A stretch of DNA of 64,000 bases from Candidatus Sumerlaeales bacterium (GTDB lineage Bacteria > Sumerlaeota > Sumerlaeia > Sumerlaeales > Sumerlaeaceae), in NCBI GenBank assembly GCA_038243585.1, contig JBBSQY010000002.1, forward strand, positions 1 through 64,000. Reading direction: 5' to 3'. Below are positions 829 through 4,972 of the stretch, one piece after another. The number at the start of each line of letters is the position of its first letter. Positions within the stretch are counted from its first letter, which is position 1. The notes under the pieces are model-generated. The model ran no database searches, was not told the origin of the DNA, and worked only from the letters and a program-made list of their open reading frames with translations. The position numbers and the translations under genes were made by a program.

Positions 829-2652
829 TCAGGAGTAAAACCGCAGTACCGACTGCCCCGGCACCGCGCCTTCTCTTAGGACCTGCCATGGGTTTTGGGT
901 CATGTCCACCACCGTAGTCCTCACTGACTGCGGCAGGCCGTCTCCATCAACAATTATGGCAGCCTGACCCGTCAGTTGCTCCCTTGGTTTTTCCCAGGAG
1001 GTGATCGCCAGCGGGCGTCCCAGCATACTGAGAATGGCAAGGGACGTGTTATCCGATGGTTGCCGAACGGCTATGGTGGCCGAATGAGAGACATGGCGTC
1101 TCAGGTTTCCCGCTGCGTTAAATACGAGGGTAAGAGGGCCCGGCCACAGCTCATCCAAGAGCGGTTCCAGCGCGTCCAGATCTGCTTTCACCAGGTGCTT
1201 AAGTTGACTGGTGGAATGGATCAGGATCGACAAAGCCTTATCCTGCGGCATACCGGCCGCCTGCCGCAGCCTTTCGACCGCCGCAGGATTGGCCGCGTCG
1301 GCGGCGAGGGCAAACATTATATCCGACGGAAAAGCCACAATCTGCCCTTCCAGCAAGCGATCGGCCACGTGTTCAATCACGTCCACCGAAGGGAATTCCC
1401 CGGCAATTTTCAGCAGTTCTGGCTTATCCGGAGGCTCAGCGGTTACGGGCGTAGGAACGACAGGCACAGTAGTCACCCCGACCGTAGCACCCTGGTTTAC
1501 CTTCGACTCCGCGACCCGTTCGGCAGCCTTTTGAAAGCCCGGCAAATCGCGCAGGCGCTTTTCAATATCACGCACCTCGGTGGAATCGAACTGATAAAAA
1601 CTGGCCTGATCCAGCGAAGATGGTTTGAAAAACGGGTCTGCGCAGGTTTCGTTTTGATTATCCATGCCGTCGAGAGCGTTCAACAGGACCTCAACGGACG
1701 GATCCCCGGCTTCCAGAAGATCAGATATGCTGCCGTCGCTATTTTGCAGCAGGCCATGCAAAAAATCGGAAACGCGTACGCAGGCGGTATCTGAGCTTCG
1801 GGCGCGCTTTTTTGCATAGGACACCGCTTCAAAAACTTCATCGCTAATGACAGGATCGCTGGTAATCTCCTCGCCGCCGTCGAAGCCGCTCAGATAATCT
1901 TTCAGCAAAACGGGATCCAGGCCCGCATGAGCAAACGCCGAAAGCCAGGGTTCATCGAGCGCGGCAAAATAATGAGCTCCCACCACTTCCAGATGGGAAC
2001 GGGAACGAGCCAGTTTTTGCCCGTGCGTCATCAGGCTCCGAAGGGGGACACTGAAATCCAGGGCGGGTTTTTGCACCTGAACAGGTTCGGTTTTGACAAC
2101 TTTTTTAATGGGCGCCGCCATGGCCGTTTCGAGCTCCTGATACAGGGCAATATCCTGCTCATCCTGATCCGCCGGCGCAATTGGTGGGTCAGTGTTTTTT
2201 GACGTGATTTGTTCAATGTTCGCTGATGTTTTTGCCGGATTAGTTTTCGCAAAAGGGGATGAAGGCGAAGAGGAATTCTGGACAGAATTCAGAAGATTTC
2301 CCACCAAATGGGCCAAAATATTCGGGTCGCTGGCGAAGCAGATCAGTGCCGGCGTATCCTCAAGAATCGTGGCAAGCCGACCCGGTTCAGCGGGGGGAGG
2401 GCACCACGCCACGGCAGTAATCGCAGGATGCAGGGCGGTCGCAAGAGAAGCAGTGAGGCGACCATCGGTGTCGGCAAAAATGCAAAGCGCGCACTGAGTA
2501 GGTTCCAGATCCATGACCCAACGCAAGACTTCCCTGGGAGCCGCCGGAGGGCTAAGTAAAGAAGCAATTTGTCGAAGCTGAAGCTCATGCCGAAACTGTT
2601 TAACCAATCCCGCGCTGTCGTCAGAACCTATAATGGCCACGTGCGATTTCAT
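829..2652 (-). CDS. Multidomain protein: PurE-like N-terminus, Clp N-terminal repeat domain, degenerate TsaC/YrdC (Sua5) domain
   Basis: C-terminus GQIVAFPSD..., WPGPLTLV, TIAVRQP, TTVVDM, VLREGAV is YrdC-like. Middle has two Clp-N-like helical repeats (QKLARSRSHLEVVGAHYFAAL; AKKRARSSDTACVRVSDFLHGLL). Confidence 0.75.
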   Translation of the reverse strand: MKSHVAIIGSDDSAGLVKQFRHELQLRQIASLLSPPAAPREVLRWVMDLEPTQCALCIFADTDGRLTASLATALHPAITAVAWCPPPAEPGRLATILEDTPALICFASDPNILAHLVGNLLNSVQNSSSPSSPFAKTNPAKTSANIEQITSKNTDPPIAPADQDEQDIALYQELETAMAAPIKKVVKTEPVQVQKPALDFSVPLRSLMTHGQKLARSRSHLEVVGAHYFAALDEPWLSAFAHAGLDPVLLKDYLSGFDGGEEITSDPVISDEVFEAVSYAKKRARSSDTACVRVSDFLHGLLQNSDGSISDLLEAGDPSVEVLLNALDGMDNQNETCADPFFKPSSLDQASFYQFDSTEVRDIEKRLRDLPGFQKAAERVAESKVNQGATVGVTTVPVVPTPVTAEPPDKPELLKIAGEFPSVDVIEHVADRLLEGQIVAFPSDIMFALAADAANPAAVERLRQAAGMPQDKALSILIHSTSQLKHLVKADLDALEPLLDELWPGPLTLVFNAAGNLRRHVSHSATIAVRQPSDNTSLAILSMLGRPLAITSWEKPREQLTGQAAIIVDGDGLPQSVRTTVVDMTQNPWQVLREGAVPGQSVLRFYS

Positions 2653-3178
2653 GATCTTAAGTACTAGCGGATAGGGAGCTGGATTCGCTGGAAGGTGAGA
2701 AGGCAGATTGTGGAAAACTCAGAAGATGAGAAGAGGCGGCGGAGAAACGCAAAAACGGGGGCAACTTATCAATTTCGCGTGCCTGCTTTTATATTTTCAG
2801 ATGTGCACATTTTTGCTTTTAGCTGCATTTTTCCCTTGAAAAGAACGCTTCACCTTGAATAAGGGCACCTGTCTCTGGTTTTTTTGCACGTGACTGAATC
2901 GTCTGGCTCAGCATGGGGCGGTCGACTTTCAGCACGCAATGCTTCATCGTGAAGGATAATACCGGTAATAGCCTGATAGCCCCGATGTTTTCAGTGCCAG
3001 AGCCTCGCCAGTAAAAGCCCCCATCAAACCGCGTGAATTCTGCGTGGCATATTTGATCCGGGTGTGGAATTCCACAGAAAAAGGCGAAATGCTGGGCTGC
3101 TGTTATGCGGAAAGCGCAGCGCGACGACGACCGGTAGATATTTTGATCGGGGATATAAAAGGTTAGGGGCCGGCACGC

Positions 3179-4972
3179 ATGAAGAGAGCGCCCGAATCTC
3201 GCGTTTCAGATTTTGAGCAGCTAATAGATTTAGGCAAGGAAAAGGGTCATCTTACCTATGCCGAGATCAATAAGCATTTACCCGAAGACGTAAGTTCTTC
3301 GGATATGGAAAGCCTTCTGGACGAACTGGAAGAGCTGGACATTGAGGTTTACGACGACAAGGATATGGCCGCCCACGCAGCAAAGGGCAAAGAGGCCGAT
3401 GCTGACGTAGAAGAGACTGAGGAAAAGCCGGCCGCTCGCGAGCCGGAAGAGGTTCAGGAAGAGGCCCAGCAGGAAAGCGAAGGCACCAAGATCGATGATC
3501 CGGTGCGTCTTTACCTTATGGAAATGGGCAAAGTTCCATTGCTTACCCGTGAGGAAGAAGTCACTCTCGCGAAAGCAATCGAAAAGGGCCGCCACGAGAT
3601 AACCGCCGCTATCGCCCGTGCCAGCGCCACCGCCGGCGAACTGAAAAAGATTTATACCAGGGTTGAATCCGGCGCGTTCAACCTGAACGATATTCTCCGT
3701 GCAAACGTGGATGAGAGCGATCCCGACGAGCGTAACCGTTATGTCCGACACGTCCTGGATAATCTGGATATTGTCCTGGGGCATTACAGCGAAATTCTTG
3801 ACCGCCTCGACCAGCTTGAAGATCCGTCCCTTTCTGCGGAAGAAGTCGATACCCTTCACAAAGACATCGAAGAACGGCGCGGGATCATCTATCATCACCT
3901 GCTCCGCATCGACTTAAACTTTAACATTATTGAGCAGGTGGCTTCGCGCATTAAAGAAGTGGCGCGACGGATCGAAGAAGCAAACAACGATATCCGCGAC
4001 GTCATCGTGCGAACCATGCTCAGCGAAGAAGATCTTCGCCGCATAGTGAAAAAGACCCGCCGGAACAGCCCCGAAGCCAAAGCCCTGGAAAAGCAGTATG
4101 GGTTTAGCATCGACCAGTTTATCAAAATGGACAAGCGAGTGCGGACCGCGCAACGAGTCGTCAAGCGCCTCGAAAAAGAAGCAGGGAACACCTACGAAGA
4201 ACTCGCTATTATTGTAAAAGAAATTATTGCCGGCGAACGGGAAGCCCATCGGGCGAAGATGAAGGTCGTTGAGGCTAATCTTCGTCTTGTCGTCTCCATC
4301 GCTAAAAAGTACACCAACCGCGGCCTGCAGTTCCTGGACCTCATCCAGGAAGGAAACATCGGTCTCATGCGCGCAGTGGACAAGTTCGAGTATCAGCGCG
4401 GCTACAAGTTCTCCACTTACGCCACCTGGTGGATTCGTCAGGCCGTTACCCGTGCAATCGCCGATCAGGCCCGTACCATTCGCATTCCTGTCCACATGAT
4501 CGAAACCATCAACAAATTGAGCCGTATCAGCCGTTATCTCGTTCAGGAACTGGGCCGCGAACCTACGCCAGACGAAATTGCTGTCAAAATGGGACTGCCG
4601 GTTGACAAAATCCGCAAGGTGTTCAAAATCGCGCAGCAGCCGATCTCGCTGGAAACCCCCATTGGCGAAGATGGTGACTCCACATTTGGCGATTTCATCA
4701 ATGATCCGGATGCTGTCAATCCAGCCAGCGCAGCGGCAAATACCCTGCGCCAGGGCCGCATAGAAGAGGTCCTCTCAAGCCTGACCGAGCGCGAAGAGAA
4801 AGTGCTTCGTCTGCGATTTGGAATCGGAACAAGCGACTTCCCCCGCACACTGGAAGAAGTCGGCACTATCTTTAACGTAACACGCGAACGTGTACGGCAG
4901 ATAGAAACAAAAGCATTAAACAAGCTGCGTCACCCACAGCGTCGTCAGAAGTTGCTCGAGTTCATGGAATAA
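3179..4972 (+). CDS. rpoD: RNA polymerase primary sigma-70 factor
   Basis: Region 1.1, [60 protein letters not shown]. Confidence 0.98.

Follow-up and report, generated by a model that had tools for sequence, protein, structure and literature searches.

The 64,000-nucleotide stretch of DNA analysed here (the window, positions 1 to 64,000 of contig JBBSQY010000002.1 of a Candidatus Sumerlaeales bacterium) encodes on its reverse strand a 607-amino acid (aa) protein, P0001, in which a PurE-like domain, a Clp N-terminal-like domain and a YrdC/TsaC-like domain follow one another in a single chain. The reading preferred here, with a probability of about 0.6, is that P0001 descends from a PurE-TsaC fusion of the Sumerlaeota, is catalytically dead and would now act as an acidic, self-associating multi-domain binding or scaffold protein. 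P0001 is best read as a pseudo-enzyme, as an earlier examination of the letters alone (the original prediction) had proposed, because the catalytic motifs have been lost from both of its enzyme-derived domains and because intact purE and sua5 genes are present in the same genome. Its motifs and the comparative genomics indicate that it no longer makes threonylcarbamoyl-AMP (TC-AMP) or, at the PurE end, N5-carboxyaminoimidazole ribonucleotide or carboxyaminoimidazole ribonucleotide (N5-CAIR/CAIR). Dead TsaC paralogues are a known kind of protein; the PurE-ClpN-TsaC protein is a new form. The parts of the gene, with the evidence used to delimit them, are as follows.

829..2652, minus strand: P0001, whole open reading frame (ORF), 607 aa and the stop codon in a single open frame
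2275..2652, minus strand: residues 1-126, degenerate PurE-like (flavodoxin-like) domain (AlphaFold2 (AF2), Foldseek, VIA-align, hhalign)
2062..2274, minus strand: residues 127-197, low-complexity disordered linker (predicted local distance difference test, pLDDT)
2107-2163, minus strand: residues 164-182, conserved acidic amphipathic helix inside linker 127-197
1648..2061, minus strand: residues 198-335, Clp N-terminal-like domain built of two four-helix repeats (profile against the PDB, Foldseek, model)
1519..1647, minus strand: residues 336-378, clade-specific motif ETCADPFFKPSSLDQASFYQFD (predicted disordered) and then the helix RLRDLPGFQKAA (identity, invariant columns)
1438..1518, minus strand: residues 379-405, Pro/Val-rich disordered linker (pLDDT, identity)
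832..1437, minus strand: residues 406-607, YrdC/TsaC-like domain (Pfam, Foldseek, alignments)

The whole-protein AF2 model, which was built from an alignment of 14 homologues and has a mean pLDDT of 72.9, contains folded blocks at residues 1-126, 198-330 and 406-595, and its pLDDT falls below 50 at 126-164, 177-194, 341-356 and 376-401. The sole domain that Pfam recognises in the protein is PF01300 (YrdC), and residues 1-418 taken alone give zero Pfam matches. Thirteen close full-length homologues, at 38-51% identity and placed in Sumerlaeota by named contigs, form a clade of 14 with P0001, and the frame is open in all 14 members.

The identity of the YrdC domain is certain. PF01300 matches residues 433-595 with an expect value (E) of 3.8e-33, and Foldseek pairs the C-terminal domain with TsaC2 of T. 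maritima and with archaeal Sua5. The E values of these matches run from 4e-17 to 1e-14 and their root-mean-square deviations (rmsd) from 2.2 to 2.9 A, across some 205-215 columns; the match at E 4e-17 has an rmsd of 2.2 A for about 209 columns, and identity is 26-32%. The likeness to TsaC/Sua5 extends to the WPGPLT, R-x-P, TTV and LR-x-G elements, all of which P0001 keeps, but P0001 differs from those enzymes in having two extra N-terminal domains, no SUA5 C-terminal domain and an eroded active site. The erosion was read from an alignment with the Sua5 of the same genome and with P. abyssi Sua5. Opposite the PTETVYGL, KGR and PSAN of the same genome's Sua5 stand P442-S-D-I-M-F-A-L449, A466-G-M468 and T551-S-W-E554, and the strings that the original prediction had quoted (PSDIMFAL, AGM, TSWE) are thus in place within the single 607-aa ORF. 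The KxR/SxN tetrad, which the excerpted text of PMC10321239 uses as the criterion for a functional TsaC/Sua5 and that of PMC6004061 describes as essential for ATP binding, has become A466-x-M468 / S552-x-E554.

A residue-by-residue comparison is possible with P. abyssi Sua5, in which, according to the same excerpts of PMC6004061, K56, R58, N62, S143, N145, S147 and G148 bind ATP or pyrophosphate (PPi) and T35, H67, R121, S181 and R195 bind threonine. The first five ATP/PPi ligands correspond in P0001 to A466, M468, K472, S552 and E554, after which the SG loop past SxN is deleted, P0001 being 11 residues shorter there. The threonine ligands correspond to I445, L477, R530, T579 and R593, so that within the set given by those excerpts two are kept, one is conservatively changed and two are lost, the equivalents of T35 and H67 being hydrophobic. 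Across the 14-sequence clade the lysine of the tetrad is present in 0/14, the arginine in 0/14, the serine in 14/14 and the asparagine in 2/14, and no member has the complete KRSN set. R530, R593, T579 and S552 are invariant in 14/14, and the clade has acquired invariants of its own, K485-H486, together with a near-invariant aromatic at position 553 (11 W and 3 F among the 14). Because KxR has been lost and R530, R593, T579 and S552 are invariant, the triphosphate site is gone from the clade and part of the carboxylate-binding site persists.

The assembly to which P0001 belongs (3.43 Mb, 99 contigs, 89.7% complete) was searched for separate intact copies of the two enzymes, a check that had been proposed together with the pseudo-enzyme reading, and both are present. 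One is a 355-aa Sua5 in which PTETVYG, KGR and SAN are intact and the Sua5_C domain is present, and the other is a 168-aa PurE with GSRSD, SAHR and GAGGAAHLPG, encoded next to purK; P0001 is therefore not the only TsaC of its genome. The PF01300 scan of this genome found nothing beyond P0001 and Sua5, and no HypF-type frame of about 800 aa. A second AIRC-like gene encodes a 256-aa LarB-like protein (locus L004, G000:C10:12268-15660) and lies beside a gene for a 466-aa histidine-rich LarC-like protein, and this larB-larC pair suggests nickel-pincer cofactor synthesis.

The assignment of the N-terminal domain to PurE, which had been made by eye, is borne out by structural comparison and by intermediate sequences. 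Residues 1-128 modelled alone, with a 22-row alignment, give a five-stranded alpha/beta fold with a pLDDT of 94.9. The first four Foldseek ranks for this model are all PurE, at E 1.5e-4 to 4.7e-4 and template modelling (TM) scores to the query of 0.66-0.71, and VIA-align, which is independent of Foldseek and was run over 48,161 chains, also places two PurE chains on top with a Z score of 13.9 each: the PurE domain of PAICS (rmsd 3.2 A, 123 aligned residues) and T. denticola PurE (rmsd 2.7 A, 121 aligned residues). Receiver domains (Z 12.4, within 1.5 Z units) and LarB (Z 12.1) follow, and with so narrow a margin and a fold that is common, the modelled fold alone would not prove PurE ancestry. 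Direct sequence comparison is weak: Pfam AIRC (PF00731) has no match in P0001 at E up to 10, a purpose-built PurE hidden Markov model (HMM) has none in the N-domains of the clade, and hhalign of the 14-sequence N-domain alignment against a PurE profile yields a probability of 6.6% and P of 0.0056. Two hhalign steps through intermediates give a much stronger connection, since the clade's N-domain matches the N-domains of 11 distant three-domain relatives (E 1.8e-7, probability 93.8%) and those in turn match 101 PurE sequences (E 1.2e-17, probability 98.9%). The PurE homology of the domain thus rests on the intermediate relatives and the fold, not on direct comparison.

The substrate-handling features of PurE are missing from this domain. 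In an alignment with the PurE of the same genome and with P0023, a relative of the same three-domain order that combines a full PurE with SAHR (Pfam 3.3e-53), a Clp_N domain and a near-intact YrdC, the SAHR motif has become AAPR in P0001 and the GAGGAAHLPG loop has become ADTDGRLTAS. The PurE C-terminal helices are also absent, the domain having 128 aa as against about 165 aa. The histidine of SAHR and the GAGGAAHLPG loop are catalytic motifs in E. coli PurE. The loss of SAHR was part of the original prediction and stands. P0001 therefore resembles PurE in its flavodoxin-like fold, for which PurE is the best structural match, and in a predicted capacity for self-association, but differs from it in lacking the histidine, the loop and the helices and in falling below the Pfam threshold.

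Self-association was predicted with four copies of residues 1-128, which gave an ipSAE score of 0.66 (the median of 0.68, 0.66 and 0.08), the best of three controls scoring 0.00. Contact agreement in these runs was at least 41% and partner pLDDT at least 73, and the predicted interface is symmetric, formed by strand 103-105 and helix 112-123. Of the proteins used for calibration, 20 of the 30 with solved pair structures attained the mark, as did 1 of the 23 known as single chains, although the present job is unlike the calibration in its use of four copies and of a custom alignment. The score may also merely mirror likeness to the octamers of PurE, which are solved structures.

The middle domain had been likened to a Clp N-domain, and this identification is upheld by both profile and structural evidence. 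The model has eight helices in two repeats. The family profile searched against the PDB matches the N-domains of ClpB, ClpC and Hsp101 over residues 204-337 at E 8e-6 to 1e-3, and Foldseek matches the domain to the N-domains of ClpC1, ClpC, ClpB and ClpA at E of about 1e-6 to 1e-5 with TM scores to the target of 0.71-0.82, the best subset being the ClpC1 and ClpC N-domains (E about 1e-6, TM 0.74-0.82). Pfam Clp_N (PF02861) has no match in P0001 at E up to 1 in either the protein scans or the genome scan, and is listed for P0001 in a precomputed domain table despite that result; within the clade it reaches 8 of 14 sequences at the same limit (best E 3.3e-4), and it passes its cut-off in all six of the more distant full-length relatives. 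The likeness to the N-domains of ClpC, ClpC1, ClpB and ClpA and to stand-alone Clp_N proteins accordingly lies in the two-repeat, eight-helix architecture, and the differences are an identity of only 12-20% and the absence of an attached Clp/Hsp100 AAA+ module, the domain being placed between pseudo-PurE and YrdC instead. The Thr-Glu-His signature of the ClpC phospho-arginine site appears, by eye, to be kept in neither repeat. Both Hsp100 ATPases of the genome have N-domains of their own, with two Clp_N repeats each, and for this reason the idea that the Clp_N-like domain of P0001 serves an N-domain-less Clp ATPase in trans was rejected. The coupling to Clp substrate recognition suggested in the original prediction finds no support in this analysis.

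Conservation along the chain peaks in the former TsaC domain and in the segment with the disordered aromatic motif. Mean pairwise identity in the clade is 57% in the dead YrdC domain and 58%, the highest of all segments, in residues 336-378, compared with 39% in Clp_N, 31% in the N-domain and 17-25% in the linkers. Within the first linker the acidic helix at 164-182, which the model shows as helical at 165-179, has a mean pairwise identity of 42% versus 17% for the linker around it; it is common to all three-domain relatives, and a like stretch occurs in 2 of 10 aligned two-domain PurE-TsaC fusions (G020, G023). Residues 336-356 are specific to the P0001 clade and nearly invariant, yet predicted to be disordered, a combination characteristic of short linear binding motifs. 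Intramolecular docking of this aromatic motif was considered and found no support, the monomer model leaving 341-356 below pLDDT 50. Taken with the open frame at 38-51% identity and the new invariants, this pattern indicates that P0001 is still under selection. The protein is acidic: the net charge of the YrdC-like domain ranges from -6 to -15 over the 14 sequences, with a mean of -10.6, and D+E exceeds K+R in every domain of P0001, the exception being the 23-residue linker 383-405, which has one K/R and no D/E.

The wider distribution of the architecture was determined in a survey of 75 Sumerlaeota species genomes, with 19 loci read in detail, and in a protein search seeded with P0023, which reached 1152 proteins with E no higher than 0.001. 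Most of the best 120 of these 1152 join PurE to YrdC within about 400-560 aa, and many of the 120 are labelled Sumerlaeota or BRC1; among the matches listed 85 of 101 metagenomic PurE+YrdC proteins with a strong PurE half keep KRSN. These two-domain fusions (PF00731 + PF01300) resemble P0001 in domain order, in the segment preceding YrdC and, in the two cases mentioned above, in the acidic-helix-like stretch; they differ from it in that they keep a strong PurE (180-270 bits) and mostly an intact tetrad, lack Clp_N, and do not lie beside rpoD in any of 12 loci. In the other Sumerlaeota genomes the family profile of P0001 scores the fusion YrdC at about 150-187 bits, versus about 75-112 bits for Sua5. 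In GTDB families f4-f11 and f16 the best YrdC match is the two-domain fusion, which is often also the only strong PurE; Sua5_C is absent there except in G017, and the tetrad is kept in all five loci read. In families f12-f15 (G033, G036, G046, G043; L033-L036) a strong PurE (182-194 bits) is combined with a tetrad region that has changed from KxR/SxN to K-x-[GQR] / N-x-[ST] in all four loci read, and separate PurE and Sua5 genes coexist with the fusion.

Families f12-f15 represent a second degenerate PurE-YrdC fusion lineage, of about 510-610 aa, in which KxR is replaced by K-x-Q/H/G (K-x-R in one of the four loci) and SxN by N-x-A/S/T; fusions of this type include P0107, P0110-P0113, P0116-P0123 and P0131, and the lineage looks independent. 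In G074, which belongs to another class, a purE of 164 aa lies next to a Sua5-type gene of 316 aa on one strand, the two being unfused (L057, G074:C111:1000-3600), an arrangement that may correspond to the stage before fusion. PF01300 matches are also found in frames of about 770-850 aa in many Sumerlaeota genomes. The 821-aa frame of G064 (L039, G064:C26) is HypF by eye, with CxxC zinc-finger motifs and a YrdC part at 215-390 by HMM, and the others are taken as HypF by frame length and score.

The three-domain form with Clp_N occurs, among the 75 genomes, only in f1, the GTDB family to which the window belongs, where it is present in 12 of 13 genomes, and within this family the state of the tetrad can be compared with the presence of Sua5. 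In G055, G056, G057 and G066 (93, 80, 95 and 96% complete; L020-L022, L014) TxTxYG, KxR and SxN are kept, no Sua5_C is found, and the only other PF01300 match has a HypF-like frame (589-836 aa) and score; in these four genomes the three-domain protein is presumably a working TsaC whose PurE half is already degenerate. In the other eight genomes the tetrad is eroded, and differently so by genus: AGR/SAR, IQS/SIR, TDR/TAD, RAQ/DSG, LGL/RMR, and AGM, AEL or AGL with SWE, SWD or SWH. Sua5_C is present in six of these eight; G062 has a Sua5-grade YrdC match broken by a contig end, and no Sua5 is found in G059, a genome only 66% complete. The pattern is consistent with Sua5 having taken over catalysis in these lineages, after which the constraint on the catalytic residues would have been relaxed.

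A YrdC tree was computed from 66 rows chosen as representatives from about 170 sequences. The Sua5 copies form one clade (Shimodaira-Hasegawa-like approximate likelihood ratio test, SH-aLRT, 100), and the 14-member clade of P0001 is likewise supported (100), with a long stem of 0.8 changes per column and short inner branches, inside a group of 18 eroded sequences that is itself supported (98). Because its root is unreliable and its backbone unresolved, the tree is not used here to order the events, and alone it does not show the three-domain form to be nested within the two-domain fusions.

The course of events that would best accommodate these observations begins with a fusion enzyme, PurE-TsaC, that is found across the Sumerlaeota. 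Within family f1 a Clp N-domain would have been inserted between the halves of the fusion, and in lineages that had stand-alone PurE and Sua5 the substrate-binding residues would have been lost from the PurE half before they were lost from the TsaC half, with the folds, the frame and the position next to rpoD being retained after catalytic loss. In the resulting protein the pseudo-PurE domain would mediate dimerisation or oligomerisation, the Clp_N-like domain and the conserved disordered aromatic motif would make protein-protein contacts, and the remodelled, conserved YrdC cleft, which keeps two arginines that hold the threonine carboxylate in Sua5, would accommodate an anionic ligand or a partner. 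The carbamate chemistry common to PurE and TsaC may explain the ancestral fusion, not the job of the eroded copy. On this account the Sumerlaeota would preserve a graded series that runs from an active two-domain fusion, through an active TsaC with a dead PurE and a Clp_N domain, to a protein in which both halves are dead yet conserved, and the series would show how stand-alone genes can supplant a fused housekeeping enzyme that is nevertheless retained in a different role, with matched active and inactive orthologues.

Several observations count against this interpretation. P0001 scores 123.3 bits with TIGR00057, the NCBIfam equivalog for TC-AMP synthase (EC 2.7.7.87), for which the cut-off is 123.2, and its similarity to real TC-AMP synthases therefore stays high; the invariance of R530, R593, T579 and S552 is what small-molecule binding or a new catalytic activity would also produce; and the self-association score fell to 0.08 in one run out of three. 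On the comparative side, the f1 genomes are kin, so that the complementarity of tetrad and Sua5 represents few independent events, and the backbone of the YrdC tree is unresolved (22 of 59 inner branches open), with a very long branch to the HypF outgroup. The scaffold role itself is suggested by losses and conservation. The main alternative is a neofunctionalised sensor or new enzyme, in which the YrdC cleft has been remodelled for another small molecule, probably one that bears a carboxylate and is not a triphosphate, and Clp_N and pseudo-PurE transmit or localise the signal. The former active-site lining is indeed the most conserved part of P0001, with the four residues just named invariant (their ligand roles taken from excerpts of PMC6004061), K485-H486 specific to the clade and position 553 always W or F, and the long stem followed by short branches resembles a burst of change followed by constraint. 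The housekeeping neighbours suggest no ligand, however, and the erosion is unlike between genera, which resembles relaxed constraint and not convergence on one site; the alternative is judged rather unlikely. A regulatory elaboration is more doubtful still. It would have the TsaC cleft sense a carboxylated or carboxylate metabolite, as a relic of CO2 and carbamate handling, and the Clp_N-like domain and aromatic motif recruit or shield proteins at Clp/Hsp100, coupling carbon or translation status to proteostasis. Were it true, the ancestral PurE-TsaC fusion, which appears to supply the sole TsaC and the sole PurE of many Sumerlaeota, would reflect a real coupling of two CO2-using enzymes.

The remaining explanations are each given very little credence. 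That P0001 is a weak or conditional TC-AMP synthase backing up Sua5 would agree with its TIGR00057 score at the cut-off, with the intact-tetrad relatives that are seemingly the only TsaC of four genomes, and with E. coli YciO, a TsaC paralogue for which excerpts of PMC12506659 describe trace TC-AMP synthesis in vitro; this is nevertheless most improbable, given that the basic residues of KxR are lost in 14/14, the equivalents of T35 and H67 are hydrophobic, the SG loop is deleted, the tetrad is essential for ATP binding (PMC6004061, in excerpt) and an intact Sua5 is present in the same genome. YciO itself is, in the excerpts of PMC4615747 and PMC12506659, a widespread paralogue that fails to substitute for TsaC in vivo and has been mis-annotated as a TC-AMP synthase, and P0001 resembles it in coexisting with a real TsaC/Sua5 and in being mis-annotated. 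It differs in that YciO consists of one domain, about 200 aa long, has a basic patch and is described as largely conserved in its active-site residues (PMC12506659, in excerpt), and P0001 is a 607-aa, three-domain, acidic and eroded protein. This difference bears on a YciO-like role in binding tRNA or rRNA, for which the chance is very slim. The YrdC fold was first proposed to be RNA-binding and YciO is tied to rRNA metabolism through its basic surface patch (again in the excerpts of PMC12506659), and an RluD-like pseudouridine synthase is encoded 3.7 kb from P0001; the YrdC-like domain of the clade, however, is acidic, as is every other domain of P0001, and it is not a stand-alone domain like YciO. 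The link to RNA binding made in the original prediction is for these reasons disfavoured. A functionless remnant on its way to loss, finally, would account for the absence of the gene from G064, which at 92% completeness is the only f1 genome without it, and for the genus-specific erosion of the catalytic site, but can hardly be reconciled with a 600-codon frame open in 14 sequences at 38-51% identity, with invariant blocks and rpoD synteny in 10 of 11 loci, or with a dead domain that is the most conserved domain. The preferred reading remains that of a dead PurE-TsaC fusion retained for binding or scaffolding.

The annotation of these proteins deserves attention, because the dead clade is likely to be mis-annotated systematically as TC-AMP synthase. 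One relative, P0007, already carries the name "tRNA threonylcarbamoyl adenosine modification protein" in a source, and P0001 lies 0.1 bit above the TIGR00057 cut-off. No PurE-TsaC fusion or Clp_N-YrdC architecture was found described in a literature search that covered journals outside subscription and in which "PurE" is a noisy word, and the supplementary tables of PMC12506659 and PMC10321239 might list such fusions.

The genomic neighbourhood of P0001 adds two features to those listed above.

2653..3178, no strand: intergenic region of 526 bp between the divergent genes for P0001 and rpoD
3179..4972, plus strand: rpoD, full-length housekeeping sigma-70 with regions 1.1 to 4, the conserved divergent neighbour

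The divergent orientation to rpoD was noted at the outset and is confirmed by these coordinates. The pair is kept in 10 of the 11 f1 loci examined, with gaps of about 0.3-2 kb, the sole locus without it being that of G059; the count leaves out G056, in which the contig is too short. Because the active and the dead forms both have this adjacency, it is read as the inherited synteny of a former housekeeping gene and not as a sign of the new function, and rpoD was rejected as a functional partner. In E. coli, tsaD is likewise divergent from the rpsU-dnaG-rpoD operon. The neighbours of P0001 are housekeeping genes (rpoD, hisA-like, thioredoxin and rluD-like).

A scan for promoters and terminators around P0001 gave counts no higher than chance, and a search for sequencing runs listed no RNA data set. 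The 526-bp spacer contains one sigma-70-like match, on the plus strand and at chance level, and a terminator-like hairpin at 842-868 on the minus strand (11 pairs, 7 of them G-C, with a T-rich tail) falls within the last codons before the stop at 829-831, such sites being not above chance in the region. The contig begins inside an insertion sequence (IS)-type transposase fragment at 3-266 on the minus strand (Pfam HTH_21, E 4.7e-9), which is followed by an AT-richer stretch with a GC fraction of 0.46 at 501-1000. Because the contig starts in this fragment, the native downstream neighbour of P0001 is not visible in the window; in the related genome G061 the downstream neighbour is a convergent gene which, by eye and from its ATPase motif, would encode a Lon protease.

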